Source: an uncultured Anaerolineales bacterium
Lineage (GTDB): Bacteria > Chloroflexota > Anaerolineae > Epilineales > Epilineaceae
DNA length: 64,000 nucleotides
Direction: 5' to 3'
Assembly (NCBI GenBank): GCA_964651245.1
Contig: CAZYVI010000016.1
Coordinates: 11,492 to 75,491, forward strand
Shown here: positions 3,921 through 52,237 of the stretch, piece after piece
Layout of the letters: the number at the start of each line of letters is the position of its first letter
Position numbering within the stretch: position 1 is the stretch's first letter
Notes under the pieces: model-generated
Told to the model about the DNA's origin: nothing
Database searches by the model: none
Seen by the model: only the letters and a program-made list of their open reading frames with translations
Program-made: the position numbers and the translations under genes

Positions 3921-3992
<72 letters not shown>

Positions 3993-4020
3993 CGAACCCG
4001 GTCGGCACGCACCCACTCCA

Positions 4021-4097
<77 letters not shown>

Positions 4098-11022: not shown

Positions 11023-11035
11023 CGGGTCGAGTGGC

Positions 11036-13676: not shown

Positions 13677-13744
13677 TCGTCATCGGCTGTGCGGGCGGGC
13701 GACGGCAGGCGCCGTGGGCGCCGCCGGGCTGCCCGTGTCGGACC

Positions 13745-24770: not shown

Positions 24771-24915
24771 CGCCCGGCCGACGTCGCCGCGACGGCCCTC
24801 GGCCGCCGCGGCCGTAACCGCCGTGCGTCCGTCTGTGGCCCGGCGAAGCGTTGCGGGGCTCGCCCGGCTCTGCTACACTCGCCGGCCGTTGCGCCCGGCG
24901 ACCTGACGCCCACCG

Positions 24916-25932
24916 ATGACCCGCCCCCGCGGCGGCCTGGAGGAACGCGCCTTGGTCGAGGACCTGACGCCCGATCGCATCGAGCCGTCCGGCGCCGCGC
25001 GCCGCGGTGACGCTGCGTGGCCGTTCGATGCGGCGCGGCTGGCGCGGATGCTGGCCAACGAGGCCGACATGTCGTTCAAGCGCCGGGCCGAGGCGGTGTA
25101 CGACTTTCTGCGCATCGGGCCGCACGACCGCGTGCTGGACATGGGCTGCGGCCGCGGCTTCTACCTCAAGTTCAGCCGCGAACTCTACCCCGACGCCGAC
25201 GTGGTGGGCGTTGAGCTCGATCGGCCGCTGTTGTCGACGGCGCGGGCGGCCGTGCCCGGGGCCGCGGTCGTGAACGGCAACGTCTATCGGCTGCCGTTCG
25301 CCGACGGCGCGTTCACGCGAATCCTGTTCACCGAGGTGATCGAGCACATCCCCGACGACGTGGCGGCGCTGCGCGAGCTCGCGCGCGTCTTGGCGCCGGG
25401 TGGTCGGCTGGCGATCACGACGCCGCACGCGGGCTACCCGCTGGCGTGGGACCCGCTCAACCGCATCCTCGAGGCGACCGTGGGCCGACCGATCCGCCGC
25501 GGCGTGCTGTCCGGCATTTGGGCGAACCACGAGCGGCTCTACACGCCCGAGGCGCTGAGCGCCAAGATCGCCGCGGCCGGGCTCGTCGTCGACGAGGTCC
25601 GCTTCTTGACCCGCTTCGCCTTTCCGTTCATCCACAACCTGGTCTACGGCTTGGGCAAGGAGCTGCTGGTGGCGGGCCGACTGCCGGACGCGATGGCGCG
25701 CGCGGCGGACCGCTTCGAGACCGGCGGGCAGCGCGGCGCATGGTGGAACCCGGTCCGCTGGGGGCTGGCGGCGTTCAACGTGGTCGACCGGCTGAACGAT
25801 GTCGTTCCGCCGCGCGGCGACGCGCCGTTCCTGATCCTGGCCGTCGCCGCGCGCAAGCCGGGCGAGCCGGACCCGGCCGCACGCGCCGCGGCGGCCGCCA
25901 TGCCGATCGCGCACCCGGAGCCGCAGCCATGA
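24916..25932 (+). CDS. Class I SAM-dependent methyltransferase
   Basis: 'RVLDMGCGRGFYL' is SAM motif I, and 'ILFTEVIEHIPDD' is the post-II region. The stop overlaps the start of the downstream giant membrane protein (ATGA at 25929-25932). Confidence 0.8.
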   Translation: MTRPRGGLEERALVEDLTPDRIEPSGAARRGDAAWPFDAARLARMLANEADMSFKRRAEAVYDFLRIGPHDRVLDMGCGRGFYLKFSRELYPDADVVGVELDRPLLSTARAAVPGAAVVNGNVYRLPFADGAFTRILFTEVIEHIPDDVAALRELARVLAPGGRLAITTPHAGYPLAWDPLNRILEATVGRPIRRGVLSGIWANHERLYTPEALSAKIAAAGLVVDEVRFLTRFAFPFIHNLVYGLGKELLVAGRLPDAMARAADRFETGGQRGAWWNPVRWGLAAFNVVDRLNDVVPPRGDAPFLILAVAARKPGEPDPAARAAAAAMPIAHPEPQP

Positions 25933-28900
25933 CCGAGCCCCTCGACCCGGTCGCCGCCGGCGACGCGGGCCACCTCGCGTCGCGCGAGGACCGCGACGGG
26001 CGGGCGTCGGCGCCGTCGTGGCGCCAGCGGCTGACGTCGCGCCGGCGGGGCCCCACGACGACCGCGCTGCTGCTGGGCGCGATCGTCGCCTGCGGCTTCT
26101 ACCTGCGGACGGTCGGCATCGACTGGGACGCCGGCCATCACCTTCACCCCGACGAGCGCTTTCTCACCGACGTCGCCAGCTCGCTGGCGATGCCGAACGA
26201 CCTGCTGCACTACCTCGACACCGACACCTCGCCCCTCAACCCGCGCAACCAGGGCAAGGCGTTCTTCTCGTACGGCACCTGGCCGATCACGATCGCGCGC
26301 GTCATGGCCGACGCCGCCGGGCCGCTCGGGCTGGGGATGACGGACTTCGGCTCGGTCTACATCGTGGGCCGCTACATGAGCGGCGTGCTCGACCTGTTGA
26401 CCGTGCTCTTCGTGTTCGGGCTGGGCGCCGTGCTGTACGATCGCCGCGTCGGCCTGCTGGCGGCGCTGTTCACGGCGTTCACGGCCTTCCACATCCAGCA
26501 GTCCCACTTCTTCACCGTCGACGCCGCGTTGACCTGTTTCGTGATGTGGACGCTGTTCGGGTTGGCGCTGGCCGTCCGGCGCCGCACCTGGTGGCCGCTG
26601 GCGCTGGCGGGCGCGGGCCTCGGGATGGCCCTGGGGAGCAAGGTCACGGTCTGGCTCTTGGTGCCGATCGCCGTGTTGACGATCGTCGCGGCCGAGCTGC
26701 GGCAGTCGCGGGCCGAGACCGCGGACGCGGACACCGATGCCCGGCCCCCGCACCCGATGGGGCGGGCGGCCGCCAAGGTCGCCTTGCTGGGCGTCGTCAG
26801 CTACGCCGCGCTGCGCTTCGCCCAGCCGGACATGTGGGCGGGGCCGGGCTGGCCGAACGTCGTCGGCAACAGCGCCCGCTTCACCGAGGTGACGGCCGGC
26901 AACTGGCATCCGCCGAAGCTGTGGTTCGACCTGCAAGCGGCCCTGCCGGACGCACTCGAAAAGTACCTGCTGCCCGACCCGCGCTGGATGGACAGCATGG
27001 CCCGCATCAAGGGCCAGGTGACGGGCTTCGGCATGGACTGGCCACCCAACCACCAGTGGTGGGGCCGCAAGGGGTACCTGTTCCCGTGGCGGAACATGGT
27101 GCTGTGGGGCATGGGCCCGGCGCTGGGGCTGGCCGCCTGGGGCGCGTGGCTGGCCGCGGGCGTCGCGATCTGGCGGGGCCGGCGGCGGCACCTGTTGCCG
27201 TGGCTCTGGGTCAGCGTGTACTTCGGCTACACCGGCATCCAGTGGGCCAAGACGATGCGCTACGCGCTGCCGATCTACCCCGCGCTGGCGGTGCTGGCGG
27301 CGTGGGGCCTGGTCGCCTGGCTCGACGCCGCGCGCCGCGCGCCCGCTGACGGCGCGCCCGACCCCGCGCCCGTCCCCGACCGGTCGCGGCGGTGGGCCGC
27401 ATTCGTCTTCGACCGGCGCGTCGCCGTGGCCGCGACCGCCGTCGTCGCGCTGGGCACGGTGGTGTGGGGCACGATGTTCTCGCGGCTCTACACCCGCCAC
27501 CACAGCCGCATCGCCGGCAGCCACTGGATCTACCACAACCTGCCGACAGCGGTGGGCGTCCGGATCGCCGACGACCCGGCCGGCCTCTATCCGGGACCAT
27601 GGCTGCCGGCGCTGGCGCCCGGCGACCTGCGCACCGTCGACGGCGTGCGCTGGCCGCTCGACGCCGCGTTCACCGGGCCGATGCGGCTGCACCTGCCCGA
27701 CGAGTCGTGGCAACAGCACCTCACCGGCGGCTCGTTCGGCGCCCGCCCCGATCTCTGGACGCCGCGCCGCGGCGACGCCACCGACGTCGCGTCGCTGCCG
27801 CGGCTGACCGTGGACGCCGTGCGGCTGGCGTACGCCCAGGCCGACGCGGCCTCGTCGCGCACCGTGCGGGTCGTGCTCAGTCAGGGCGCCGCGTTGCGAC
27901 CGGGCGGCGCGCCGGAGCGCGCGATCGCCCAGGGGCGGGCCGAGGTGCGGGTCGGGCCGGGTGAGGCGGCGCTCGAGGTCCCGCTCGACGCGCCGCTGTC
28001 GCTGCACCTGGGCCAAGAGGTCTACGTCTGGGTGGCCGTCGACGGTGGGCCGATCACCTGCCGGCCGGCGCGGATGGCCTACGAGACGAGCTGGGACGAC
28101 ATCGTGCCCGAGGGCATGTACGGCTACGCCGGCTACGACGATGCGACCACCGACTGGGTCGACGGCCTGTTCGGCGTGACGAACCTCGAGATGTACGGCG
28201 AGGACTATCCGGACTGGCTCGACCAGACGCTCGACCAACTCAGCCGCGTCGACTACTGGGTCTCGTCGTCAAACCGCGTCTACGGCGCGGTGGCCCAGCT
28301 GCCGATGCGCTATCCGGCCACGATCGCCTTCTACGAGAACGTGCTGTTCGGCGAGACGCTGGGCTGGCGGCACCGGGCGTCGGTCCAGTCGTTCCCGAGC
28401 CTCGGACCGCTGCGGGTCAACGACCAGGGGGCCGAGGAGGCCTTCCACGTCTACGACCATCCCCAGGTCGACGTCTTCGAGCGCCCGACGCCGTTCGACG
28501 CCGAGGCGCTGCGGGCCTACCTGGCGCCGATCACCGCCACCCGACGCTGGTCGTTCCCGCCGGTCTCGCCCAACCCGATCGTGCGCTTCGCCGACGCGCT
28601 CTTCGGCCGGATCCCGGTCGACCGCGCCGCGCCGGCCGGCGCCACCGTCGACGGCGGTGCCGCGCGCACGCGCACCGTCGACGCCGTCCTGCTCGACCCG
28701 GCGCGGCTGGCCGAACAGCGCGCCGGCGGCACCTGGCGCGACCGGTTCGACGTCGACGGCGTGCTGAACCGGTACCCCGTCCTCGGCGTCGTGGCGTGGT
28801 ACCTCGTGCTGGCGCTGCTGGGCCTGGCGGCGTTCCCGCTCGTCGCCGTCGCGCTGCCGCGGCTGCCGGACCGCGGCTGGTCGCTGGCGCGGACGGCCGG

Positions 28901-31391
28901 GCTGCTGGCGACGAGCTATGGCGCGTGGCTGGCGGCGTCGACGGGCGTCGCACGCCACGGGCGCGGACTGCTCGTGGTCGCCGCTGTCGGCGTGGCGCTG
29001 CTGTCGACGGCGGTGGCGCGCTGGGCCGGCTTCGAGGTTCGCGCCTGGCTGCGCGAGCACCGAGGCCGGGTGGCGACGATCGAGGCGGTCTTCCTGGCCC
29101 TGTTCGTCGTGTTCCTGGCGATCCGCATGGGCAACCCCGACCTCTGGCACATCTCCAAGGGCGGCGAGAAGCCGATGGACTTCGCCTACCTCAACGCCAC
29201 GCTGCGCAGCGTGCGCTTCCCGCCCTACGACCCGTGGTTCGCCGGCAGCAAGCTGAACTACTACTACTTCGGCTTCGTGTTCGTCGGGGCGCTGATTCAG
29301 CTGACCGGCATCGTGCCGTGGGTGGCCTACAACCTGGCCATCCCGACGCTGGCGGCGCTGACCGGTACCGGCGTCTGTGGTGTCGTGATCGGGCTGGCCG
29401 ACCGGCTGGCGGTGCGCGCCGCGGTCGGGCGGGCGGCGGGCGTCATCGCCGCCGGCATGACGGTGCTCATGGGCAACCTCTACCAAGCGCCGTGGCTGGC
29501 GGCGCGGTTGGCCGAGGCGGCGCCGCCGATCGGCCATGCCGGGCTGCGCAGCGCCATGCTGCGCGTCGAGGCGGTGCCGATCCTGGGGCAGTTCGTGCAG
29601 ATGCTGCGCGGCGCCTACGCCTTCGCCACGGACCCCGGGGCCCGCAACCTGTTCCCGCTCGACTGGTGGTACTGGAACGCGTCGCGCGCCATCCCCAGCG
29701 TCAGCGGCGACGTCCAGCCGATCACCGAGTTCCCGTTCTTCACGTTCCTCTACGCCGACCTGCACGCCCACATGATGGCGATGCCGATCGCCGTGCTCGC
29801 CTGCGGCCTGGCGCTGGGGTGGGCCACGCCCGGCCGGCCGGCGTCGTTCCGCCAGCCGTGGGTCGCGCCCGAGCCGGTCGTCCGCCTTTCCCTCGGCGCC
29901 CTGGCGATCGGCGCGCTCTGGCCGACGAACACCTGGGACTACCCAACCTACGGCCTCGTGGCCGCCGGCGCGATCGCCATCGGCGCGTATGCCCGTTCGC
30001 GGCGCTTCGACGTGCTCTGGTTCGGCCGCGTCGCCGCCACGGGCGGCGCGCTCTTGGCGCTCAGCCTGGCGCTGTTCCTGCCGTACCACCGCGCCTACGT
30101 GACGCCCTATTCGGAGTTCCAGGCGTGGCACGGCTTCCGCACGCCGGCGAGCGCCTACCTGACGGTGCACGGCATCTTCCTGTGCGCCATCGCCAGCTGG
30201 GCCGCGCTCGCGCTGGCCGACCACCTGGCCCGCCGCGCCGAGCGCGACGCTCTGGCGTGGCGGCTGGCGCTGGCGCTCGGCGTCGCCGTCGTCGCGGCGG
30301 TGGTCGCCTGGCAGTGGTCGCTGCGGTCGTTCCAGGCCGACCTGCCGCCCGACGTGCCTCGGCCCGAGCTCGCCACGCCGCTGCTCGTGGCGGTGCTCAT
30401 GGCCGTCGGCCTCGTGCTGGCGCTCCACGGCGCGGCGCGGCCGGCGGAACGGCTCCTCGGCTGGCTGCTGTTCGTCGGCGCACTCCTCACCGGTTTCGTC
30501 GAATACGTGGTCCTCAGCGGCGACATCGGCCGGATGAACACCGTGTTCAAGTTCTACATCCACGTCTGGATCCTGTGGTCGATCGCCGGCGGCGCGGCGC
30601 TGGCGGCGCTGCTCGACCGCGCCGGCGGCGGCGAGTCCGGCCGGCCTTCGCTGCCGCGCTCCGGCGCGGCCGCCCTGGCCGCCGCGGCGACGCTCGTGCT
30701 GGTGTCGAGCGGCATGCTCTACACGGTCACCGCGGCGCGGGCCAAGATCCTGGACCGCTTCCCGGCCGACCGCTCGATCGGCGACGAGCGGGCGGCGGCG
30801 CTGCGCCGGCCCGGCCTGTCGGGGATCGACTACATGGCCCATGCCGCCTACGTGGAGTACGGCGCCGACGACCAACCCGCGGTGCTCGATCTGCGCGCCG
30901 ACCTCGAGGGTATCCGCTGGCTGCTGGAGAGCGTCGACGGCACGCCGACGATCCTCGAGGGCACCTGGCCGATCAACTACCACTGGGGATCGCGCTTCAG
31001 CATCTACACCGGCCTGCCGACGGTCATCGGCTGGGACTGGCACCAAAAGCAGCAGAAGGCGGCGATCGTCGACGACCCGGTCGGCAACCGCCTCAACGAC
31101 GTCCGCACGATCTACGAGACGACGGACGACGCGCTGGCCAACCACCTGCTCGACCGCTACGGCGTCGAGCTCGTCATCGTCGGCCAGCTCGAGCGGATGC
31201 GCTACGACGCGGCCGGCCTCGCCAAGTTCGAGCGGTGGGCCGAGCAGGGCGCGGTCGAGGCGGTGTTCGCCAACGACCAGCTGACGATCTACCGTCGGCC
31301 GCTGCCCGAGTCGCCGGCCGCCCTGCCGGACGCGGCGCGGTCGCCGGCCGGGGCGCGCGGCGGTCCGGGGCGCGCGGTGCGCCCGGCATGA
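25929..31391 (+). CDS. Giant (about 1820 aa) polytopic GT-C-type membrane glycosyltransferase-like protein (PMT/ArnT-like N-terminus with an 'HPDERF' motif; 'DUF2298'-like C-terminal half)
   Basis: Overlap-coupled ATG. More than 25 predicted TM helices. An N-terminal loop 'GIDWDAGHHLHPDERFLTD' carries a DE-type motif as in the GT-C fold. The C-terminal half contains 'GGEKPMDFAYLNATLRSVRFPPYDPWFAGSKLNYYYFG', which is shared with the next gene. Confidence 0.75.
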   Translation: MTEPLDPVAAGDAGHLASREDRDGRASAPSWRQRLTSRRRGPTTTALLLGAIVACGFYLRTVGIDWDAGHHLHPDERFLTDVASSLAMPNDLLHYLDTDTSPLNPRNQGKAFFSYGTWPITIARVMADAAGPLGLGMTDFGSVYIVGRYMSGVLDLLTVLFVFGLGAVLYDRRVGLLAALFTAFTAFHIQQSHFFTVDAALTCFVMWTLFGLALAVRRRTWWPLALAGAGLGMALGSKVTVWLLVPIAVLTIVAAELRQSRAETADADTDARPPHPMGRAAAKVALLGVVSYAALRFAQPDMWAGPGWPNVVGNSARFTEVTAGNWHPPKLWFDLQAALPDALEKYLLPDPRWMDSMARIKGQVTGFGMDWPPNHQWWGRKGYLFPWRNMVLWGMGPALGLAAWGAWLAAGVAIWRGRRRHLLPWLWVSVYFGYTGIQWAKTMRYALPIYPALAVLAAWGLVAWLDAARRAPADGAPDPAPVPDRSRRWAAFVFDRRVAVAATAVVALGTVVWGTMFSRLYTRHHSRIAGSHWIYHNLPTAVGVRIADDPAGLYPGPWLPALAPGDLRTVDGVRWPLDAAFTGPMRLHLPDESWQQHLTGGSFGARPDLWTPRRGDATDVASLPRLTVDAVRLAYAQADAASSRTVRVVLSQGAALRPGGAPERAIAQGRAEVRVGPGEAALEVPLDAPLSLHLGQEVYVWVAVDGGPITCRPARMAYETSWDDIVPEGMYGYAGYDDATTDWVDGLFGVTNLEMYGEDYPDWLDQTLDQLSRVDYWVSSSNRVYGAVAQLPMRYPATIAFYENVLFGETLGWRHRASVQSFPSLGPLRVNDQGAEEAFHVYDHPQVDVFERPTPFDAEALRAYLAPITATRRWSFPPVSPNPIVRFADALFGRIPVDRAAPAGATVDGGAARTRTVDAVLLDPARLAEQRAGGTWRDRFDVDGVLNRYPVLGVVAWYLVLALLGLAAFPLVAVALPRLPDRGWSLARTAGLLATSYGAWLAASTGVARHGRGLLVVAAVGVALLSTAVARWAGFEVRAWLREHRGRVATIEAVFLALFVVFLAIRMGNPDLWHISKGGEKPMDFAYLNATLRSVRFPPYDPWFAGSKLNYYYFGFVFVGALIQLTGIVPWVAYNLAIPTLAALTGTGVCGVVIGLADRLAVRAAVGRAAGVIAAGMTVLMGNLYQAPWLAARLAEAAPPIGHAGLRSAMLRVEAVPILGQFVQMLRGAYAFATDPGARNLFPLDWWYWNASRAIPSVSGDVQPITEFPFFTFLYADLHAHMMAMPIAVLACGLALGWATPGRPASFRQPWVAPEPVVRLSLGALAIGALWPTNTWDYPTYGLVAAGAIAIGAYARSRRFDVLWFGRVAATGGALLALSLALFLPYHRAYVTPYSEFQAWHGFRTPASAYLTVHGIFLCAIASWAALALADHLARRAERDALAWRLALALGVAVVAAVVAWQWSLRSFQADLPPDVPRPELATPLLVAVLMAVGLVLALHGAARPAERLLGWLLFVGALLTGFVEYVVLSGDIGRMNTVFKFYIHVWILWSIAGGAALAALLDRAGGGESGRPSLPRSGAAALAAAATLVLVSSGMLYTVTAARAKILDRFPADRSIGDERAAALRRPGLSGIDYMAHAAYVEYGADDQPAVLDLRADLEGIRWLLESVDGTPTILEGTWPINYHWGSRFSIYTGLPTVIGWDWHQKQQKAAIVDDPVGNRLNDVRTIYETTDDALANHLLDRYGVELVIVGQLERMRYDAAGLAKFERWAEQGAVEAVFANDQLTIYRRPLPESPAALPDAARSPAGARGGPGRAVRPA

Positions 31392-33898: not shown

Positions 33899-33906
33899 CA
33901 ACCCGG

Positions 33907-36900
33907 ATGGACGCAGAGATGGACGAGTTCACGACGCAACCCGACGACCGCGCGGCCGAGCCGCCGCGCGCCGACCGCGCCCGCCGCCGCGCCCGCACCG
34001 GGCCGACGATCGCCGAACGATGGGCGGCGTTCCGGTGGGACTGGGAGGCGGTGGGCTGGCTGGTCGTGATCGCGCTGGCCGTCGTCAGCCGCCTCGTCTT
34101 CCTCGGCGAGCGGGCGATGTCGCACGACGAGAGCCTCCACACCTTCTACTCGTGGCAGCTGGCCGTCGGCAAGGGCTACCGCCACGACCCGATGATGCAC
34201 GGTCCGATCCTGTACCACTGGACCGCGCTGATGTACCTCCTGTTCGGCGTCAGCGACTTCACCGCCCGCTTGTTCGGCGCCCTGAGCGGCATCGCCTTGG
34301 TGGCGACGCCGTTGCTGCTGCGCAAGTGGCTGGGCCGCTTCGGCGCGCTGGCGGCGGGGGTGCTGCTGCTGCTCTCGCCGTCGATCATGATGTACTCGCG
34401 CTACATCCGCCACGATATCTCGATCGAGCTCGCCACGGTGCTCATGCTCATCGGCTTCATCCGGTACCTCGACGACCGCCGGCCGCGCTGGATCATCACC
34501 GCGTTCGTCGGCGCCGCGATCGGCATCACCTCGGCCGAGATGTCCTACATCACCGGTTTCGTGCTGGTGGCCTTCATCGGGCTGGCGCTGTGGGTCGAGT
34601 GGGCCGGCGCGGGCGACGGCGCGCGCGGGCCGTGGGGGGTGCGGCTCGGCATCGCCGCCGTGCTCGTCGCGGCGGCCTTCGGCGTCCGGCGCCTGGCCGA
34701 CGTCGCCTCGTTGACCTCGATGCCCGCCGCCGCGCTGGCGGCGGTCGGCGTCGCCCTCGCCATCGCGCTCGCCGCCGTCGGCTGGCTGCTGGCGCGCGCC
34801 GCCGGCGCCGCCGGAAGCGACCGCGGCGCCACCGCGGTCGCCGGCGACCCGGGCTGGTTGACGCCGGTGAAGCTTGGGCTGGCCCTGCTCGCCGTGGGCG
34901 CGCTGCTGCGGCTGCCGCTCGACCCGAGCGCGGCGGCCAACTCGGCGCAGTGGTACCTCGGCAAGGTCGGCGTCAGCCTGATGGTGGCCGGCGTGCCGTT
35001 CGTGGCGGTCGGCGCCGTGGCGGCCTTCGTGCCGCTGCCGGCCGCCGCCGACCGGCTGGCGCAGCTCGTCGTCGGGGCGGTGGCGGCGCTGACCTACATC
35101 CTGTTCGCCGAGGGCTTCGTCAGCCACGGCGTCACCACGGCGTTCGACGCCGCGTACTACGCCTGGTCGATCGCCGGCGTGCTCGCCCTGGCGGTGGCGG
35201 CCGTGTGGCTGCTCCTCCAGCTGCCGCGCCGCCGCGTCTGGGCGCTGCTGGCCGTGGTCGGCTGGGCGCTGCTGGCATTCGACCTCGCCGTCCAGTACGG
35301 CGGCGCAGCCGACCGTTTCGCCGGCTGGCAGAGCACCAGCGCCATCGTCGGCGGCCTGCTCTTGGCGGTGGGCGCGGCGGTCATGGCGTTCGACCTGGCG
35401 GGGCGGGCCGCCGAGGCGCCCGCCGCCTGGCGGCGCTGGCTCGGCGCAGCCTGGCCGAACGCGATCGGCATCGGCCTTGGGATCGTCGCGTTCGCCCTGG
35501 CGGTGCGCGGCCAGGGCGACGTGTCGCACCTCACGAAGATCGCCGAGCCGCTGGCCGTGGCGTCGGGCATCGTGCTGGCGCTGGCGATCGGCGCGGCGAT
35601 GCTTGCGCCGGGCGCGCGGCCGGAGCGCGGCGTGTTGCGGCAGCTCAACGCCGTGCCGTACGAGGGGGTCGTGATCGCCGGCGTCGCGTTCATCGTGCTC
35701 TACCTGGCGTTGTTCACGACGTGGTTCCAAGAGACCGATCTCGCCAACGGCTTCGCCCGCTCGCTGAAGTACTGGTGGTCGCAGCACGACGTCCAACGCG
35801 GCGGCCAGCCGTGGTACTTCTACATCCTGGTCATCGGGCCGCTCTACGAGTGGCTGCCGATGGCGCTGAGCGCCGTGGCGCTGGGGCTGTACGCCCGCCG
35901 GCCGGCGCTGCGCTTCGGGCGCGGCAACGACAGCGGCGACGACGGCGCGCCGTCGCCGGCGGCGTGGGCGTTCGTGCCGATGATCGTGGTGTGGATGCTG
36001 GGCGTGTGGTGGATCTTCAGTTGGGCCGGCGAGAAGATGCCGTGGCTGATCACCCACATGGCCGTGCCGATGATCCTCCTGGCCGCGCGCGCCGTGGCCG
36101 ACCTCGGCGCGCAGGTCGACCTCGCCGCCTGGCGAGCCAAGGGCTGGCAGGTCACGTCGCTGACGATCGCGGCGCTGGCCCTGCTGGCCGGGCTGGTCGC
36201 GCGCTCGACGTCGCTGGCCGCGGCCGAGGCGGCGCGGCCGGCGTGGGTCGGTTGGGCCGTGGCGGCCGTCCTCGTCGTGGCGCTGCTGTCGGGCGTGCGC
36301 GCCGTCGGCGGCGAGCTCGCGCCCGCGGCGCGGCGTCACGCGCTGGGCCTCGGCGTCGGGATGTTCGCGCTGGCCGTCAGCGGCGGCTATGCCCTGCTGG
36401 CCAACTTCAAGAACAGCGAGCTGGGCACCGAGTACCTGGTCTATGCCCACGGCACGCCCGAGGACAAGGACGTCTACGAGCTCCTGCAGCGCATGGACCA
36501 GGCCCGGCCCGACCAGCCGCTGAAGGTCGGGTTCGACAACGAGGTGAGCTGGCCGTTCACGTGGTACTTCCGCAACATCTGCCCGCCGCGGGCGCGCGGC
36601 CTGGCCGCCGATCTGGCCTGCCTCCTCGGCCAAGGCTGCCCCGATCCGACGGCGTGCAGCGATTGGCGGGTCGATCCGAAGTACCTGGCCGACGGCAAGA
36701 ACCCGCCGGTCGACGTCGCCGGGCTCAAGGAACTCGACGCCGTGCTCGTCGGCTCGCCGAACTACGGCAACTTCGAACCGTACCTGCGCAAGGACTTCGT
36801 CGAGGTCGAGGTCAACCGGATGTACTGGCCCAACGAGGGATACAAGGGCCTCACCTGGAGCCGGATCCGCGACGCCCTCGTCGTGCCCGAACTGCGCGCC

Positions 36901-38214
36901 AACCTGCTGCGGATCATCGTGCACCGCGAGTACGTCGTCGACCCGCTGGCCAAGCCGCTCGCGCCCAAGTCGCTCGACGACTGGTTCTACCACGCCAAGA
37001 TGAAGCTCTGGGTCAAGAAGTCCACCGCGCAGGCGCTGGAGGCCACCGGTCAGGACTGGCCGGAGTGGATGAAGGGCGTTTCGATCGAGCCCGAGGCCGA
37101 CCACAGCGTGCCGTTCGAGATCGACCGCGCCTTCACCGAGGCCGACGGGCTGGCCTTCAACGCCCCCAAGGACGTGGCCGTCGCCCCCGACGGCAGCTTC
37201 TACGTGGTCGACCACGGCAACAAGCGCCTCGTCCACCTGGCGGCCGACGGGACGCTCGTCGCGGCGATCGACGCGCCCGTCCTGGAGTACAGCGACGACA
37301 ACGCCGGCATCCAGCCCAGCGCCTGGGGCGTCGGCGTCGGCCCGGACGGTGCGGTGTACCTGGCCGATACCTGGAACAACCGCCTGCTCGTCTACCGCGA
37401 CGATGCGTTCACCGAACGCACCTTCGGCACGGGCGGCGTCCCGGCCAGCGCCGATGTCGACCTCGACAAGCTCTTCGGACCGCGCGACGTGGCCGTGGGG
37501 CCCGGCGGCGAGCTGTTCCTCACCGACACCGGCAACAAGCGGATCATCGTCATCGGGCCGGACCTCACGGCGGTCCGTTCGATCGGCAAGGAGGGCAACG
37601 CGGCCGGCGAGTTCAGCGAGCCGGTGTCGGTGGCCTTCGATCCCGAGACCGGGGAGATGGTCGTCGCCGACCTCTGGAACCTCCGCATCCAGGTGTTCGA
37701 CCGCGACCTCATGCCGGTGCGGCAGTGGGCCGTCGACGGTTGGGGCAGCAAGGAGGCCGCGCACAAGGCGTACGTCGCCGTGGGGCCCGGCGGCACCGTC
37801 CTGGTGACCGACCCGCAGGGCGCGCGGGTCTGGATCTACGACCGGCAGGGCGCCGTCCTGGGCACGCTCGACCTGGAGAACGACCCGACCGGGCTGCTGC
37901 AGCCGATCGGCATCGCCGTCGCGCCGGACGGCTCGATCTACGTCGCCAGCTCCGAGAAGAACATCGTCACCCGCTACCGCTGGCCCGAGAGCCTCCGTGC
38001 CGCGGTCGGACTCGACGCCGCCCCGGCCGCCACGGCCGACCCCAACGCCGCGACCGCCACGGCCGGCTCGCCGGCCGCCGCGACCGCCACGCCGCCGCCC
38101 ACCGCCACCGCGGCCGACGCGGCGGGCGACGCCGGCGGGGCGGCGGGAGCCGACGATCCGGCCGCGGGCGCGCCGCTGCCCAGCCCAACGCTGGGCCAGG
38201 CGGCGCGCCCGTGA
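33907..38214 (+). CDS. GT-C / family-39-like (PMT/ArnT-type) membrane glycosyltransferase fused to a C-terminal periplasmic NHL-repeat beta-propeller
   Basis: N-terminus 'MSHDESLHTFYSWQL...HGPILYHW...LLLLSPSIMMYSRYIRHD' is the ArnT/PMT_2-like DE motif region. Many TM helices follow. The C-terminus has at least 4 NHL-like repeats ('FYVVDHGNKRLVHLAADG', 'VYLADTWNNRLLVYRDD', 'LFLTDTGNKRIIVIGPD', 'MVVADLWNLRIQVFDRD') and an Ala/Thr/Pro-rich tail. The start is 33907 or 33919. Confidence 0.75.
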   Translation: MDAEMDEFTTQPDDRAAEPPRADRARRRARTGPTIAERWAAFRWDWEAVGWLVVIALAVVSRLVFLGERAMSHDESLHTFYSWQLAVGKGYRHDPMMHGPILYHWTALMYLLFGVSDFTARLFGALSGIALVATPLLLRKWLGRFGALAAGVLLLLSPSIMMYSRYIRHDISIELATVLMLIGFIRYLDDRRPRWIITAFVGAAIGITSAEMSYITGFVLVAFIGLALWVEWAGAGDGARGPWGVRLGIAAVLVAAAFGVRRLADVASLTSMPAAALAAVGVALAIALAAVGWLLARAAGAAGSDRGATAVAGDPGWLTPVKLGLALLAVGALLRLPLDPSAAANSAQWYLGKVGVSLMVAGVPFVAVGAVAAFVPLPAAADRLAQLVVGAVAALTYILFAEGFVSHGVTTAFDAAYYAWSIAGVLALAVAAVWLLLQLPRRRVWALLAVVGWALLAFDLAVQYGGAADRFAGWQSTSAIVGGLLLAVGAAVMAFDLAGRAAEAPAAWRRWLGAAWPNAIGIGLGIVAFALAVRGQGDVSHLTKIAEPLAVASGIVLALAIGAAMLAPGARPERGVLRQLNAVPYEGVVIAGVAFIVLYLALFTTWFQETDLANGFARSLKYWWSQHDVQRGGQPWYFYILVIGPLYEWLPMALSAVALGLYARRPALRFGRGNDSGDDGAPSPAAWAFVPMIVVWMLGVWWIFSWAGEKMPWLITHMAVPMILLAARAVADLGAQVDLAAWRAKGWQVTSLTIAALALLAGLVARSTSLAAAEAARPAWVGWAVAAVLVVALLSGVRAVGGELAPAARRHALGLGVGMFALAVSGGYALLANFKNSELGTEYLVYAHGTPEDKDVYELLQRMDQARPDQPLKVGFDNEVSWPFTWYFRNICPPRARGLAADLACLLGQGCPDPTACSDWRVDPKYLADGKNPPVDVAGLKELDAVLVGSPNYGNFEPYLRKDFVEVEVNRMYWPNEGYKGLTWSRIRDALVVPELRANLLRIIVHREYVVDPLAKPLAPKSLDDWFYHAKMKLWVKKSTAQALEATGQDWPEWMKGVSIEPEADHSVPFEIDRAFTEADGLAFNAPKDVAVAPDGSFYVVDHGNKRLVHLAADGTLVAAIDAPVLEYSDDNAGIQPSAWGVGVGPDGAVYLADTWNNRLLVYRDDAFTERTFGTGGVPASADVDLDKLFGPRDVAVGPGGELFLTDTGNKRIIVIGPDLTAVRSIGKEGNAAGEFSEPVSVAFDPETGEMVVADLWNLRIQVFDRDLMPVRQWAVDGWGSKEAAHKAYVAVGPGGTVLVTDPQGARVWIYDRQGAVLGTLDLENDPTGLLQPIGIAVAPDGSIYVASSEKNIVTRYRWPESLRAAVGLDAAPAATADPNAATATAGSPAAATATPPPTATAADAAGDAGGAAGADDPAAGAPLPSPTLGQAARP

Positions 38215-38232
38215 CGATCGCCCTGGCCGTGG

Positions 38233-38322
38233 CGGGTTAGAGGGCCTAACAAGACCACACGGCCACGGATCTCTACCGGGCCGAGGCACGTTGTCGCGCC
38301 GGTCTTGTCAGGGTCTCTTAGG
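38233..38322. repeat. Copy 1 of an approximately 90-nt intergenic repeat with internal inverted repeats (partner at 59975-60062)
   Basis: '...gagggcctaacaagaccacacggccacgga...ggccgaggcacgttgtcgcgccggtcttgtcagggtctcttaggg' is about 85 % identical to the second copy. The arms 'gacaagacc' and 'ggtcttgtc' are reverse complements. It lies between convergent genes. Confidence 0.5.
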
Positions 38323-40056
38323 GCAGCAGCGGGCACCCGACCCGCCAGACCGGGGTGTTGAAGATCGGGTGGTAGCGCTGGTGGATGTTGCGCACGGTCA
38401 GGCAGGTCCGCTCCGGGTTCATCGGCCCGGCGGGCTTGCCGGGGTCGAGGCGGTAGCGCCAGCCGTAGTACTGCTCGGGGTGGGCCAGCGCCGCCGCGAT
38501 GACGGCCGGCGGCACCTTGCGGCGGGTGTCCTCGCAGACGCAGGCGACCGGCGGCGTCGGCCCGGCCGTTGCGGTGGGCGTCGAGGGCGGGCGCGCCGTC
38601 GCCGTCACCGCGGCGGTGGCGGTCGGCGGCGGCTCGTCCGGCTCGCGGCAGAGCTGTTCGACGTCGCCCAGGCCGTTCGCCTTGGCGAACAGATGGGCGC
38701 CGACCTGATGGTAGATCTGCCGCCGTGCGGTGTTCGCGGCGCTCGGAACGTCGAACCACAGCGCGCCGGCCGACACGATGTCGAGCGGCGCGGCGGCGCT
38801 CGTGACGACCTCGCGGCTGGCGTCGATCCGCGCCAGGCCGCCGAACGCCGTCTCGTCGTGGACCGGGATGGCGCCGAAGCTCGGGCCGAAGTCCTCGGCG
38901 AAGTACTCGGGCGTCGTCTGGGCCACCCAACGGTCGCCGGACGGCAAGGCGATCACGATGTCGCCGGCCGGGATCATCGAGCCCTCGCCGTCGGGGTTCA
39001 GGCCGCTGGGATCGTAGAAGCCCATGTCGCCGTAGCGGTCGCGGAAGCCGAGCACCATCTCGCCGCCGGGGCCGAAGACGATGTCGGTCAGCATCGGCTG
39101 CGGGTTGATGTTCCAGCCGGTGCCGGGCGTCGGGCCGGGCGTGAACTCGAAGCGGTCGTTCCACGGCCGCCATCGGGCGGGGACGCGGGCGGGATGGTCG
39201 ACCACGCCGCGCTCGAGCGCGAGCGGGAAGCGGACAACCTCGCGCATCCCGGCGCCGTCGAGGCTCGAGGCGTAGACCCGCGCCTCGAGCTCGCCCGGCA
39301 GTTGCGAGCGCTCGGCGCTGGCGACGACGCCGTGGTAGAGCGTGTCGGCCGTCACCGCCAGGCCGAACGGTCGCGCGTCGACCGACCACGAGGTCGTCGC
39401 CGCCCCGTGGGGCAGCGTGCCGAGCAGCGCGCCGTCCTCCGTCCGGTAGCGGTAGATCTGCCGATCGGCCAGGTTCGTGACGAACAGCTCGCGGCCGTCG
39501 GGGGTCAGGTCGATGTCGCCCAAGCCCGTCCGCCCTACCGCGCCGCGGCCCGCCGCATCAGGGAAGTGGCCGCCCGCCGGATCGTGGCCGTCCACGCCCG
39601 CGTTGGGGACGGTGAGCCAGAGCGACGCGACGGAGCTCCGGATGTCGATCGCGTAGATCGCCCCTGGGCCGGCCGGGCCGAACGGCGCGCCGCGCTTGTG
39701 GTAGGCCGCGGCGTAGAGGCGCTGCGTCGACGGGTCGAAGGCCAACCCGTAGGCCGCGCCGACGTCGCGCTGCGCGGCCAGTGGGCGGACCGGCGTCGTC
39801 GCGCCGCGCCGGAACGACACGACAGCCGGCTTGTCCGGGTGCGCACCGCGCGCGAACTGCGTCGTGGCCAGGATCGGGTCCGGCTCGAGGCAGGCGCTGG
39901 CGGCGGCGACCCGGTCGTCGGCGGTCGCGGCCGGCGCGGCCGTCACGCCCACCGCGGCCGCCACCGCAGCCGTGGCGGCCCACCAGGCCAAGCTCCGCAG
40001 CGGCCATGGATCGGCGTCGACGAGGCGGCGAAGGCGTCTGGCGTGCGGTCGGTGCA
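38318..40056 (-). CDS. Secreted beta-propeller-like protein (YVTN/NHL/SMP-30-like repeats) with a Cys-containing C-terminal domain
   Basis: ATG at 40056 is preceded by AGGAGAG. Signal peptide 'MHRPHARRLRRLVDADPWPLRSLAWWAATAAVAAAVGVTAAPAATA'. 'DIDLTPDGRELFVTNLADRQIYRYRTEDGALLGTL'. A C-terminal 'CVCEDTRRK...RTCLTVRNIHQRYHPIFNTPVWRVGCPLLP' follows a TATA-type linker. Only this part of the 1437-aa track ORF is credible. Confidence 0.65.
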
Positions 40057-40300
40057 TCGTGTCTCTCCTGTCCGTGATGGCGGCGATGGTTCGTCGTCGC
40101 GCGGCCCGTCGTGCCCGATCCGCACCTGTCGCGCTGCGGGCCGTTGTCGGCTCCGGACGGCCGTGCTGGCGGGGCGTACGCGCGCCGCGACCGCCGGTTG
40201 CGCCGTCGGGTGCAGACGCTGCGGCCGCCAGCGCGGTCGATTGGCCGTATACTGCCGCGCGACCGCGGCCCATGCCACTTGACACCACCCGGAGGAATCG

Positions 40301-42685
40301 GTGACGACGCCTTCCAAGCTGCCGCGCATGACGCCACCGCGCCGCCGCTGGCGACCGCCCCGGCTGACGTGGTGGCCCGCGGCGAAGCGACACGCCCCGT
40401 CGACGACGGCCGCGCCGGCGCCGCCGCCCGCCGCAGTGGGCGCCGAGCGCGCGGCCGCGCCCACCGTGTCCAGCGCCGGGCCCGCGGCGCCGCCGGCCGT
40501 CGCCGCACCCTCGGCGGCGGTCGGCGACGCGTGGCCGCAGGCCACAGCAGCAGGCGTGCGGAGCTGGCCGCGGCTTTCGACGCCGGCCGCCCGCCGCGCT
40601 GCGGCCGCCACGGCTGCGCTGGCTCTCGCGCTGTGGGCACAGGCCACGATCGAGCGGCGCCTCGTCGCGCGCCAGGCGATCCTGGCCCTGCCCGTCGTCC
40701 TGCCGCTCGTCGGAATGACGGTTGCGTGGTGGTGGTCGCTGCGGGACGACGACCGCGCCGTGGCCGACGCGCCGATGCCCGTCGTCGCCGGGCCGGCTGC
40801 CGCGCCGGCGCGCCGGCGGGACGCGGCGATCGCGCTCGGCCTGCTGGCGCTGACGACCGTCGTCGCCCCGGCGCTGCCCGGACCGCTGTTCGCGTCGCTG
40901 GCGCTGATCCACTATCCCCTGGGCCCGACGAGCCCAGAGAACACGTTCACGGCGGTCGGCGCCGCGTTGTGGATCGTTGCGATCGTCCTCTACCTGCGGG
41001 CGGTCGCCGAGCGGCCGTCGGGTTGGGACGTCGGCGCCGTCGGCCGCTGGCTGCGGCGGCCGGAGGTGCGCGTCGTCTTCGGCCGCGAGGCGCTCGTCGT
41101 CGCCGCCGTGCTCGCCGTCGCCGCCGTCTACCGCTTCCACGACCTTGCGCTCGTGCCGCGCGCGATGACGAGCGACCACGTCGAGAAGCTCATCGACATC
41201 CACGAGCTGACCGGCGGCCAGGCCCGCGCCTTCTTCTGGCGCAACACTGGGCGCGAGCTGTTCCAGTTCTATTGGACGGCGCTCTTCGTCTGGCTGGGCG
41301 GGCTGCCGGTGTCGTTCCTCACGCAGAAGATCGCGATGGCGACGCTGAGCGTCATCGCGATCACCTTCACCTACGGCCTGGGCCGCCGCGTCGCCGGCCC
41401 GGCGGTCGGCGCGGCCGCGGCGTTGGCGCTGGCGCTGTGCCCGTGGGACGTCCAGATCACCCGCGTGGCGCTGCGGTACGAGCTCTCGGCCGTGTTCGCC
41501 GGCCTGTCGCTGTGGCTCCTGGTACGGGCGCTGCAGCTGGGAACGCGCAACAGCTGGCTGGCATGCGGCGCGGCCATGGCCGTCGGCCTGCACGGCTACA
41601 CCGGCTTTCGGCCGATCCTGTTGGCCGCGCTGGCCCTGGTGGCGCTGCGCCTGGGCTATGACGCGGCGGCCCGCCGGCGATCCGGCGTCGCGGCGCCCGC
41701 CGGGCTCTGGCGGGTCCTCGCCGGCCATGTCGTCGCGACGGCGGGTCTTGGGCTGCTGCTGCTCGCGCCGCTCCTGCGCTACGCCGTCGACCAGCCCGGC
41801 CTCTTCCTGGAGCGGGCCCTGACGCGCACGACCGGCGTCGAGCAGGCGCTCGCCAACCCGCCGCTCGTGCAGTTTGCGATCAACATGCGCCAGGCGCTGC
41901 TCATGTTCAACGTCCTGGGCGACAGCGCCTGGCTCGTCAACCCGGCCGGCCGCGTCGCGCTCGAGACGGCTGGGGCGGCGCTGTTCCTCCTCGGCGTCGT
42001 CACGGCCGCCTGGCGGGCGCGGCGCGGCGACTGGCGGGGCGCGGCACTGCTGGCCACCGTGCCGCTCATGCTGACCGCGGCGGCGATGGCGCTGGCGTTC
42101 CCCAACGAGGTGCCGCACCTGGCCCGCTCGGCCGGCGCGCTGCCGGCGGTGGCCGTCCTCGTGGCCCTGCCGCTCGGCGAGATCGCCCGACGGTACCAGG
42201 GCGCCGCCGGTCGGACCGGCCGGATCGCGGCGCTCGTCGTCGCCGCCGCCCTGTTCGTCGGGATGGGGCGCAACACCTGGCGGCGCTACTACAACGAGTA
42301 CCGGCCGCAGTACAACGGCTCGACCCACAACACGTTCGAGGGCGCCGAGGTGGCGCGCGGCTTCATCGCCCTCGGCGGCGACCTCGACCACGTCTACCTC
42401 GTCGGCTGGTCGGACGGCTGGGACTACCGGGCGATCGGCGTCGAGCTGGGCGACTTCGACTACGCCGGGCTGCTGTGGGGTCGGGAGGCGGACGGATCCG
42501 ACGCCGTCGACCAGGCCGCCGCCCATGTCGACGACCCGGCGGCCAAGCTCTACATCGTGGCAGGTCCCCGCACCGAGGCCAACGTCGACGCGCTGCGCAC
42601 GTTGTTCCCCGCGGCGGTGGTCGTCGCCCACCCGCGCCGCGACGTCGGCGAGGCGTTCACGACCGTCTACGTCCCGGCGCGCTGA
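40301..42685 (+). CDS. Polytopic membrane protein, glycosyltransferase family 39 / ArnT-like (putative lipid-linked sugar transferase)
   Basis: GTG at 40301 is preceded by GGAGGAATCG. A Pro/Ala-rich N-terminal region of about 100 aa is followed by about 12 TM helices and a C-terminal soluble domain. The true start may be internal. Confidence 0.6.
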   Translation: MTTPSKLPRMTPPRRRWRPPRLTWWPAAKRHAPSTTAAPAPPPAAVGAERAAAPTVSSAGPAAPPAVAAPSAAVGDAWPQATAAGVRSWPRLSTPAARRAAAATAALALALWAQATIERRLVARQAILALPVVLPLVGMTVAWWWSLRDDDRAVADAPMPVVAGPAAAPARRRDAAIALGLLALTTVVAPALPGPLFASLALIHYPLGPTSPENTFTAVGAALWIVAIVLYLRAVAERPSGWDVGAVGRWLRRPEVRVVFGREALVVAAVLAVAAVYRFHDLALVPRAMTSDHVEKLIDIHELTGGQARAFFWRNTGRELFQFYWTALFVWLGGLPVSFLTQKIAMATLSVIAITFTYGLGRRVAGPAVGAAAALALALCPWDVQITRVALRYELSAVFAGLSLWLLVRALQLGTRNSWLACGAAMAVGLHGYTGFRPILLAALALVALRLGYDAAARRRSGVAAPAGLWRVLAGHVVATAGLGLLLLAPLLRYAVDQPGLFLERALTRTTGVEQALANPPLVQFAINMRQALLMFNVLGDSAWLVNPAGRVALETAGAALFLLGVVTAAWRARRGDWRGAALLATVPLMLTAAAMALAFPNEVPHLARSAGALPAVAVLVALPLGEIARRYQGAAGRTGRIAALVVAAALFVGMGRNTWRRYYNEYRPQYNGSTHNTFEGAEVARGFIALGGDLDHVYLVGWSDGWDYRAIGVELGDFDYAGLLWGREADGSDAVDQAAAHVDDPAAKLYIVAGPRTEANVDALRTLFPAAVVVAHPRRDVGEAFTTVYVPAR

Positions 42686-42798
42686 GCCGAGCGTGCTATA
42701 CTCGCCCGCGGCCCGCGCCGGATCGTCGCGCGGGCCACGACATGTCCCACGCCGGGCCGAGGGGCTTCCCGTCGGCCCGCGGTAGCGAGCGAGGCACG

Positions 42799-50467: not shown

Positions 50468-52237
<1,770 letters not shown>

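Follow-up and report, generated by a model that had tools for sequence, protein, structure and literature searches.

The locus analysed here is a gene cluster, conserved across the Chloroflexota, that encodes five GT-C-fold glycosyltransferase-like membrane modules together with a methyltransferase. The window (the whole 64,000-nt stretch of DNA under study) is Chloroflexota DNA with a GC content of 75%, and its nearest relative belongs to the Ardenticatenales. The module probably adds sugars to something beyond the cell membrane. The explanation that we prefer, and to which we give an even chance, is that it represents the Chloroflexota form of a conserved GT-C glycosylation module, which would act at the outer face of the membrane with polyprenyl-phosphate sugars, a protein being the likelier acceptor.

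Gene content and organization of the locus

Codon-usage/GC3 calling recovered five module genes, all in the forward orientation (Table 1), at the coordinates given in an earlier sequence-only reading of this DNA. The stop codon of the methyltransferase (MT) gene and the start codon of YYYL overlap within an ATGA at position 25929, and YYYL and YYYS are joined by a second ATGA at position 31388; both overlaps, noted previously, were confirmed by direct inspection of the sequence. The gene of the Agl23-like protein follows YYYS after a gap of 8 nt. The overlaps constitute translational coupling of MT, YYYL and YYYS, which we count in favour of the module.

The cluster is interrupted by an oppositely oriented gene whose product has a linker rich in Pro, Thr and Ala and a C-terminal part that contains Cys. 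Pfam searches with this protein gave no match, also at E ≤ 10, and a counterpart is absent from all 80 related loci; the gene is probably not a member of the module. A promoter and terminator scan of positions 24000-43000 was uninformative in a genome of such GC content. A "tRNA-???" predicted by ARAGORN at 30259-30350 is a false positive, since it falls within the coding region of YYYL.

Table 1. Genes of the module and its immediate surroundings
Product	Coordinates	Strand	Remarks
SAM methyltransferase (MT), 338 aa	24916..25932	+	First module gene; Methyltransf_11 E 5e-20
YYYL, 1820-aa fusion	25929..31391	+	PMT_2-type GT-C + soluble domain + DUF2298/TIGR03662
YYYS, stand-alone Chlor_Arch_YYY (DUF2298), 836 aa	31388..33898	+	DUF2298/TIGR03662 alone
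Agl23-family GT-C protein with NHL, 1435 aa	33907..38214	+	TIGR03663, PMT_2 and NHL matches
Secreted protein, ~557 aa	38318..39991	-	No family match; interrupts module
GTC5, fifth PMT_2-like polytopic protein, 794 aa	40301..42685	+	Start maybe 40436; weak PMT_2
Secreted double-vWA protein with PT-rich linker	22920..24770	+	VWA E 3.5e-33; context only

Domain architecture and conserved residues

YYYL is composed of (i) an N-terminal PMT_2-type GT-C domain (matching PMT_2 with E 5e-12 and PMT with E 1.5e-7 over aa 140-256) with an HPDE motif at aa 73-76, which lies within the previously quoted HLHPDERF (aa 71-78), (ii) an unassigned soluble domain, some 400 aa long (aa ~540-940), and (iii) a C-terminal YYY domain (aa 952-1789), which scored 350 bits with DUF2298 and 500.6 bits with TIGR03662 (cutoff 300.25). 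YYYS gave 338 and 457.4 bits, respectively, with the same two models. Its description as a half-paralog of YYYL is borne out by this shared membership and by the BLASTP alignment of the C-terminal parts (E 7e-24). Both proteins carry the YYYxG motif in a strongly hydrophobic domain of about 700-900 aa, as NYYYFGF at aa 1110-1116 of YYYL (YYYFG at 1111-1115) and SYYYFGY at aa 162-168 of YYYS.

Alignment of the orthologues revealed that H73, P74, D75, E76, R148, H193, D198, E1080 and Y1111-1113 of YYYL are invariant, as are D1277, H1279, H1281, D1532, R1535, N1537, K1541, H1705 and Q1708 in its C-terminal part. In YYYS, which has about 14 hydrophobic segments, Y163 and Y164 are invariant and Y165 is at least 90% conserved. 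The invariant or near-invariant acidic motifs of the YYY proteins are E132/K133, which follow a TM helix, D153 and D317-x-H-P-H321.

The AlphaFold model of YYYS (pLDDT 89) has a GT-C fold core; the conserved GT-C membrane core is present in this model and in that of the Agl23-like protein. The last TM helix of modelled YYYS is followed by an alpha/beta domain resembling the globular domain of AglB/STT3/PglB, and the best Foldseek match was the protein C-mannosyltransferase DPY19. Searches of PDB sequences with YYYS, the N-terminal half of YYYL and a 59-sequence YYY profile returned nothing meaningful, and no STT3 or other OST; the link of YYY to known enzymes is at the fold level only. Pfam searches at E ≤ 10 with the isolated soluble domains (the YYY C-terminal domains, the middle domain of YYYL and the post-membrane domain of the Agl23-like protein) likewise gave no match.

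The Agl23-like protein scored 200.7 bits with TIGR03663, "flippase activity-associated protein Agl23" (cutoff 126.25), and matched PMT_2 (E 7e-9) and NHL repeats (E 1e-28). It contains HDE at aa 73-75, within the MSHDESLHT (aa 71-79) quoted earlier, HGP at aa 98-100, a low-confidence TM insertion (aa ~230-440), an alpha/beta domain after the membrane part (aa ~840-1046) and an NHL beta-propeller (aa ~1075-1400), which confirms the assignment of such a propeller to one of the GT-C proteins; NHL repeats are also found in two vWA proteins. The TIGR03663 family is described as having a conserved DE dipeptide, an HGP tripeptide and two Arg residues close to the N-terminus. In our alignment of 54 sequences D74 and E75 are at least 90% conserved, and H98, G99, P100, R121, R139 and R165 are invariant. 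The model of this protein is an ArnT/PMT-like GT-C structure, whose fold strongly matches those of ArnT and Pmt4. Agl23_C (PF26681) was found in the haloarchaeal homologue P0228 and gave no match in the window protein, although the Pfam set used may not include this model.

GTC5 matched PMT_2 weakly (E 1.2e-3; 19.5 bits, below the gathering score of 26.1), whereas its orthologue in locus L031 clears the cutoff (27.4 bits) and PF13231 was found in several homologues. D292 of GTC5 is invariant, as are several Arg residues, and S291, H293, E295 and K296 are at least 90% conserved. The invariant or near-invariant HPDE, HDE and D292 each follow a TM helix, and their putative orientation, like that of E132/K133 in YYY, comes from charge distribution only. 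The three PMT_2-like domains could not be aligned significantly with one another by BLASTP, and hhalign of the YYY against the Agl23 profile gave a probability of only 27%, which indicates that the five modules, with the exception of the two YYY domains, are not recent duplicates.

The MT is a class I SAM-dependent enzyme according to Pfam, and no NCBIfam model reached its cutoff with this protein. Its alignment contains 78 invariant residues over 9 sequences, the C-terminal extension included.

Conservation in related loci

The order (MT)-GTC5-YYYL-YYYS-Agl23/NHL recurs collinearly among the 80 related genomes/loci. The YYYL fusion is kept as one ORF of 1500-1930 aa in 40 loci, a PMT_2-type N-terminal domain is encoded upstream of YYYS in 45 of the 54 loci with enough flank, and the Agl23+NHL gene is conserved in order in 30 of 51. 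In 28 of 45 loci YYYL is preceded by a GTC5 counterpart, which usually lies directly 5′ of it; in the closest relative (L001) it is placed between MT and YYYL, and in the window it is displaced to the downstream side of the module. Strong MT orthologues (at least 200 bits) occur upstream of the module in 9 of the 45 loci with enough flank.

In other lineages the two YYY genes are merged, encoding single proteins of 2400-2700 aa, and Rosetta-stone fusions of the types PMT_2+YYY+YYY and YYY+YYY+TPR are found. Some relatives' homologues carry PA14, a carbohydrate-binding domain (PMC8756737). No YYY gene is present within 8 kb of the haloarchaeal Agl23 homologue in locus L082, which suggests that the tight linkage may be specific to the Chloroflexota. 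Neither the Pfam-scanned genes of the window nor the scanned genes of the L031 cluster include a polyprenyl-phosphate sugar synthase, and a search for a cytoplasmic glycosyltransferase inside the module was negative; the intervening genes in L031 encode a TIR protein, an unknown protein and an ECF sigma/anti-sigma pair.

Proposed function and alternative explanations

The mechanism that we favour involves two kinds of modules. Three are PMT_2/ArnT-like (the YYYL N-terminal domain, the Agl23-like protein and GTC5), each with an acidic motif just after a TM helix; the other two are the DUF2298 YYY modules, which are predicted to adopt a GT-C fold and to end in a domain similar to that of oligosaccharyltransferases. 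On the external side of the cytoplasmic membrane, these proteins would draw sugars from polyprenyl-phosphate carriers and add them step by step to an acceptor on that side. All GT-C enzymes characterised so far serve as the analogy for the proposed donor type and outer-face transfer. In addition, the Agl23-type member may aid the crossing or presentation of a lipid-linked sugar, as reported for archaeal Agl23. The cytoplasmic MT, coupled to YYYL, would most likely modify the donor or the glycan before export, while the NHL propeller and OST-like domains would serve to recognize the acceptor. In favour of this mechanism we count the family memberships, the predicted GT-C folds of YYYS and the Agl23-like protein, the invariant or near-invariant acidic motifs, the collinear gene order, the translational coupling and the Rosetta-stone fusions.

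As acceptor we consider a secreted or surface protein in general (bearing Ser/Thr O-linked glycans) likelier than a wall polysaccharide, and not specifically one of the neighbouring vWA proteins. A protein acceptor is plausible because of the OST-like C-terminal domain of YYY, the fused NHL and TPR modules and the archaeal link between Agl23 and S-layer glycoprotein glycans; the DPY19 match of the predicted YYYS structure may be counted in the same direction, as may the probable O-glycosylated Thr of a Chloroflexota archaellin (PMC12488501). Against our preferred reading we count that none of the analyses run picked out a donor or an acceptor, that YYY has no WWDYG-type motif and no STT3 sequence link, that PA14 occurs in relatives, that no polyprenyl-phosphate sugar synthase was seen in the genes scanned, and that MT accompanies the module in about a fifth of loci only. 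The low similarity to haloarchaeal Agl23 (only approx. 30% identity over approx. 150 residues) and the haloarchaeal homologue lacking a nearby YYY gene count in the same sense.

A somewhat unlikely alternative is that the module assembles an envelope glycan or glycolipid (a wall-linked polysaccharide, sheath polymer or lipoglycan), in the manner of mycobacterial Emb, AftA-D and PimE, in which case NHL and PA14 would bind the growing glycan and the MT would make O-methyl sugars. The walls of Chloroflexus contain polysaccharide with O-methyl sugars, ArnT and ALG12 are top matches, PA14 fusions occur in relatives, and the module resembles a core housekeeping locus and often has sucC or lepA next to it (in L001, sucC lies directly after Agl23-NHL). 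However, Pfam and NCBIfam gave no match to Arabinose_trans, GT87 or another polysaccharide-specific family, the OST-like domain and the NHL/TPR modules suggest that peptides or proteins are recognized, and the family is shared with Archaea, where the genetics of Agl23, as summarised in PMC11182771, concern S-layer glycoprotein glycans.

The sequence-only reading had proposed PMT-like O-mannosyltransferases dedicated to the Pro/Thr linkers that occur in the vWA/NHL proteins nearby, with the Wzy_C protein encoded at 1035-3863 as a PglL-type O-oligosaccharyltransferase. We consider this quite improbable. The PMT/PMT_2 matches and DE motifs do fit it, and so do the Pro/Thr linkers, claimed for every vWA protein and present in five of the six secreted paralogs (the quoted string occupies aa 527-554 of the product of 11036-13372, complementary strand), and the NHL repeats common to the Agl23-like protein and two vWA proteins. 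Moreover, a vWA gene lies directly upstream of MT (intergenic gap of 145 nt), likewise in L001 and L003. These, the two closest, are however the only ones of the 80 related loci in which a vWA homologue adjoins the module, the remaining apparent vWA matches being NHL-to-NHL cross-matches; the NHL similarity is generic (about 30%), and lepA, MBL-fold, MaoC and cytochrome c genes lie between the vWA cluster and the module. The role of the vWA proteins as clients was therefore not upheld.

The Wzy_C domain itself was found (aa 717-859, E 2.4e-22), but the GH-like TIM barrel said to be fused to it is unconfirmed, as only GH35 at E 0.43 was obtained, and the nearest NCBIfam model, PEP_O_lig_1, scored 30 bits against a cutoff of 188. 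The gene is 21 kb off, beyond lepA and other housekeeping genes, and none of the 80 loci has a Wzy_C counterpart closer than 10 kb to the module, which argues against its being part of the system. A specific PMT/GT39 O-mannosyltransferase assignment is also not sustained: Pfam found no MIR or PMT_4TMC in the module, the PMT/PMT_2 matches are partial (aa 140-256 and 98-231), and PMT_2 also includes ArnT-like lipid glycosyltransferases. What stands of the surface-protein glycosylation reading are the PMT-style DE motifs, invariant or nearly so in orthologues, and the plausibility of a protein acceptor.

Very improbable, finally, is a translocation machine in which the Agl23-like protein, and perhaps YYY too, would flip or scramble polyprenyl-phosphate-linked sugars for transferases encoded elsewhere: the NCBIfam name of TIGR03663 agrees with it, as does the activity of purified Haloarcula hispanica Agl23, which is reported to translocate M5GN2-PP-Dol in proteoliposomes and to rescue yeast rft1-delta (PMC11182771), but the Agl23-like model is an ArnT/PMT-like GT-C structure in which residues of catalytic type (HDE, HGP, Arg) are invariant or nearly so, its strong structural matches include no MOP/Wzx/MurJ/Rft1-type flippase, and five GT-C modules with large extracytoplasmic domains would be excessive for flipping only. 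The flippase activity of Agl23 and its role in N-/O-glycan completion come from H. hispanica genetics and proteoliposome assays only (PMC11182771).

Significance

TIGR03662 and TIGR03663 (the latter being the Agl23 family) were already catalogued as a co-occurring pair, which the sequence-only reading had missed, and their bacterial function is uncharacterised. Clustered at 50% identity, the YYY (DUF2298) family has about 10,400 representatives, and it has no assigned function; the literature searched contains passing mentions (an appendix gene table and a DUF database paper) and no discussion of its function. New here are the predicted GT-C fold of YYY with an AglB/STT3/PglB-like C-terminal domain and the ArnT/PMT-like GT-C structure modelled for the Agl23-like protein. 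Such a fold, together with the conserved operon or, in some lineages, the single polypeptide shared with PMT_2- and Agl23-type proteins, provides a testable enzymatic hypothesis for YYY.

A broader proposal, which we regard as doubtful, is that DUF2298/YYY is an unrecognised, divergent OST-like branch of the GT-C enzymes, forming with its Agl23- and PMT_2-type partners a self-contained extracytoplasmic protein-glycosylation pathway of Chloroflexota and Archaea. If true, this pathway could be the missing machinery behind the O-glycosylation of surface proteins, for example of the Chloroflexota archaellin, for which a probable O-glycosylated Thr has been reported (PMC12488501), and the "flippase" Agl23 would really, or additionally, be a polyprenyl-P-hexose-dependent glycosyltransferase. 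The module provides a concrete candidate for the machinery that O-glycosylates surface proteins in the Chloroflexota, and raises the question of whether archaeal Agl23, now labelled flippase-associated, is a glycosyltransferase. Should it build a wall glycan instead, it would be the first entry point into the synthesis of envelope polysaccharides in a poorly understood, monoderm-like phylum.

Comparison with known systems

The closest known system is the TIGR03662/TIGR03663 pair of Chloroflexi and Archaea. The window proteins score far above the curated cutoffs and share its side-by-side genes and its signatures (YYYxG and DE/HGP/Arg, with the double-YYY + TPR fused form in relatives). Unlike in that pair, the first YYY domain of the window forms one polypeptide with a PMT_2 GT-C domain and a soluble domain of 400 aa, the second is encoded by a separate, overlapping gene, the TIGR03663 member has a TM insertion of about 200 aa and an NHL propeller, and MT and a fifth GT-C protein are attached to the module.

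H. hispanica Agl23, a putative hexose-P-dolichol flippase of archaeal N-/O-glycosylation, belongs to the same TIGR03663 family and has the N-terminal ~180 residues in common with the window protein, DE and HGP included; the identity given above was measured with P0228, a haloarchaeal stand-in and not H. hispanica Agl23 itself. The bacterial protein is more than twice as long, and its model has the fold of a GT-C enzyme, not that of a known flippase.

The likeness to STT3/AglB/PglB lies in the modelled globular (CC-unit-like) domain that follows the last TM helix of YYY. No PF02516 match was obtained, and TIGR04154 reached only 16 bits (E 2e-3) against a cutoff of 450. The YYY proteins contain no WWDYG/WWD motif; unlike STT3, they conserve GGEK, PPxDPW, YYYFG and DxHPH.

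With PMT/TMTC and ArnT (PMT_2 superfamily, GT39/GT83/GT105-like) the module shares PMT_2/PMT matches, a DE motif in the putative first outer loop and ArnT/Pmt4 fold matches. The fusion of a GT-C core with protein-binding repeats recalls TMTC (TPR) and PMT (MIR), with NHL here in place of TPR or MIR; unlike these enzymes, the window proteins sit in a multi-GT-C operon together with YYY proteins.

Gene content and organization of the module

Because the G+C content of the window is approx. 75%, raw ORF lists were full of artefacts. The genes were called from third-position GC combined with a codon-usage log-odds model for which long ORFs served as the training set. This approach recovered, on the plus strand, the genes proposed by the sequence-only reading, and direct inspection of the sequence revealed the ATGA start/stop overlaps that it had described, at 25929 (methyltransferase gene MT with YYYL) and 31388 (YYYL with YYYS). 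The Agl23-like gene follows after a spacing of 8 nt, and 145 nt lie between the upstream vWA gene and MT. An ARAGORN hit (‘tRNA-???’, 30259-30350) is located inside the coding region of YYYL and is almost certainly a false positive. Elsewhere in the window, secD and secF are not adjacent, as a CBS-domain gene and a three-gene ABC-2 transporter intervene.

Coordinates of the module genes and of other features of the window
Feature	Coordinates	Strand	Remark
Wzy_C protein gene	1035-3863		
tRNA-Met/Gly/Pro cluster	3822-4096	-	
vWA genes	4154-17670 and 22920-24770		six genes
Cytochrome c gene	22270-22923		
MT	24916-25932	+	third-position GC/codon-usage call
YYYL	25929-31391	+	third-position GC/codon-usage call; 1820 aa
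YYYS	31388-33898	+	third-position GC/codon-usage call; 836 aa
Agl23-like	33907-38214	+	third-position GC/codon-usage call
Secreted protein gene between Agl23-like and GTC5	38318-39991	-	same gene calling
GTC5	40301 (or 40436)-42685	+	third-position GC/codon-usage call
secD	50468-52237		
secF	56277-57224		

Pfam and NCBIfam searches identified MT as a class I SAM methyltransferase, with no specific NCBIfam cutoff reached. YYYL combines a PMT_2/PMT match (aa 140-256) with a DUF2298/TIGR03662 ‘Chlor_Arch_YYY’ domain (YYY; aa 952-1789; 500.6 bits, cutoff 300.25), and YYYS consists of TIGR03662 alone (457.4 bits). The Agl23-like protein matches TIGR03663 (200.7 bits, cutoff 126.25), currently named ‘flippase activity-associated protein Agl23’, as well as PMT_2, and carries an NHL propeller at its C-terminus. 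GTC5 matches PMT_2 weakly (E 1.2e-3); its orthologue in L031, the locus of an Anaerolineae relative, exceeds the PMT_2 gathering score, and PF13231 is present in GTC5 homologues. The earlier observations on gene content and motifs are confirmed: all of the quoted motifs were found in the window, as were the NHL repeats and, in five of the six vWA proteins, the PT linkers.

Conservation and gene order

A scan of the genome collection with YYYS as the query yielded 398 relatives, the closest of which (63% identity) originates from an Ardenticatenales MAG; a protein 100% identical to the Agl23-like protein (P0121) is present in public data. The best 80 of the 398 loci all bear Chloroflexota labels (Anaerolineae, Ardenticatenales, Caldilineales, Thermoflexales and Dehalococcoidia MAGs) except L063, a full Chloroflexota-type module on a MAG labelled Roseobacter sp., whose contig is probably mis-binned.

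Comparison of the window proteins with these best 80 of 398 loci by tblastn revealed a collinear, same-strand module, [MT]-GTC5-YYYL-YYYS-Agl23/NHL-[sucC]. Among loci with enough flank, the PMT_2-type N-terminal domain of YYYL lies ahead of YYYS in 45 of 54 (YYYL is one complete ORF of 1500-1930 aa in 40 loci), GTC5 is found upstream in 28 of 45 and a strong MT orthologue in 9 of 45, while an Agl23-like gene and an NHL match are each located downstream in 30 of 51. The closest relative (L001) has GTC5 between MT and YYYL, and sucC directly after Agl23-NHL. GTC5 of the window is displaced downstream, behind an unrelated secreted protein gene whose counterpart is absent from all of the best 80 of 398 related loci. 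The product of this gene has no Pfam family; its linker is rich in Pro, Thr and Ala, and its C-terminal region contains Cys. In L031, a TIR-domain gene (1814-2809) separates MT from GTC5, and a 611-aa gene of no known family plus an ECF sigma/anti-sigma pair (13361-16328) are placed between YYYS and Agl23-NHL.

Approx. 10,400 YYY proteins were detected when 1.84 billion cluster representatives were searched with a profile. Some of these, 2000-2700 aa in length, show PMT_2+YYY+YYY or YYY+YYY+C-terminal TPR architectures; these giant proteins of other genomes (P0244, P0261, P0299 and P0319) are Rosetta-stone fusions of the two overlapping YYY genes of the window.

Neighbouring vWA genes and the Wzy_C protein

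The sequence-only reading had regarded the neighbouring vWA proteins as clients of a protein O-glycosylation system, and the Wzy_C protein as its PglL-like fifth component. Both proposals lack support, because only the two closest relatives have a homologue of the adjoining vWA protein beside the module, and no counterpart of the Wzy_C protein lies within 10 kb of the module in any locus (best 80 of 398). Apparent ‘vWA1’ matches in other loci are repeat cross-hits, their positions falling on the Agl23 NHL domain. Moreover, the genes for LepA, a MaoC dehydratase, cytochrome c and a protein of the MBL fold intervene between the module and five of the six vWA genes. As to the suggested fusion of a GH-like and a Wzy_C domain, the latter is present and the former was unconfirmed (GH35, E 0.43 at best).

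The six vWA genes form a local paralogue family of secreted proteins, most with a PT-rich linker and two vWA domains, and two with an NHL propeller at the N-terminus. The genes lie around lepA, and this expansion is not kept beside the GT-C module in other genomes. The start of the last vWA gene lies within the cytochrome c gene (4-nt overlap), and the order cytochrome c-vWA-methyltransferase is also present in L003, a related locus. At its 3′ end, the Wzy_C ORF overlaps the opposite-strand tRNA-Met, and its last approx. 14 codons (…PGFEPGTNRL) may read through tRNA sequence.

Structure models and conserved residues

YYY proteins gave no sequence match to PDB chains, even with a profile. The AlphaFold2 model of YYYS, for which 59 homologues were used, was confident (pLDDT 89.3, pTM 0.93), and Foldseek matched it to DPY19 (E 4e-4) and 3vu0 (probability 1.00, TM 0.53). 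Two new points are that DUF2298 has a predicted GT-C/oligosaccharyltransferase (OST)-like fold and that the ‘flippase-associated’ Agl23 family has a predicted ArnT/PMT-like fold. No WWDYG motif was found in the YYY C-terminal domain.

Invariant in YYYS are E132/K133 (GGEK), D153 (PPxDPW), Y163-Y164, W289-W290/R295, E307, D317-x-H319-P-H321, N370/W372/D373, D583/R588/N590/K594, H750/Q753/W754 and E798. Since these residues are likewise invariant in the YYY part of YYYL, both copies look active. Putative PMT-style acidic motifs directly follow TM helices in the other domains: HPDE (73-76) of YYYL and D292 of GTC5, invariant in orthologues, and HDE (73-75) of the Agl23-like protein, at least 90% conserved; HGP of the latter is invariant. 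This protein also contains approx. 200 extra residues of predicted TM helices (aa ~230-440), with low AlphaFold confidence and poor conservation in the family alignment.

Proposed function and comparison with known systems

We interpret the locus as a conserved module for extracytoplasmic glycosylation that comprises five GT-C modules. By analogy to the GT-C enzymes characterised so far, all of these would draw on sugars linked to polyprenyl phosphate at the outer face of the membrane. Gene coupling, conserved order and fusions imply joint action of the proteins, probably in sequence or as a complex. A further contribution of the Agl23-type member may be to present or translocate the lipid-linked donor; for MT, it is coupling alone that suggests a role.

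A serious rival is that the module assembles a wall glycan or lipoglycan in the manner of mycobacterial Emb/Aft, consistent with ArnT, ALG12 and Aft being among the best fold matches and with PA14 fusions in relatives. We favour proteins, and not specifically the vWA neighbours, as the putative acceptor, because of the OST-like domain, the DPY19/PMT similarity, the repeated fusion of protein-binding NHL or TPR modules, archaeal genetics and the unexplained O-glycoproteins of Chloroflexota.

The two central families of the module, TIGR03662 and TIGR03663, are already catalogued, and their co-occurrence in Chloroflexi and Archaea is recorded in the TIGRFAM descriptions. The function of DUF2298/TIGR03662 is undiscussed in the literature searched, which contains passing mentions only (an appendix gene table and a DUF database paper). 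Cryo-EM of the archaellum of Litorilinea aerophila (Chloroflexota) in 2025 revealed densities on Thr66 and Thr145 of the archaellin that are likely O-glycans, the machinery for which is unidentified (PMC12488501). For Agl23 of Haloarcula hispanica, translocation of M5GN2-PP-Dol by the purified protein was observed in liposomes, and Agl23 suppressed yeast rft1-delta (PMC11182771). Between P0228, a haloarchaeal member of the family, and the Agl23-like protein, the alignment is limited to aa 48-196 (30% identity); P0228 has no YYY gene within 8 kb. The module is real, conserved and well-delimited, and is composed of known families that are functionally uncharacterised in bacteria; the conserved five-module operon and its fused forms are newly defined here.
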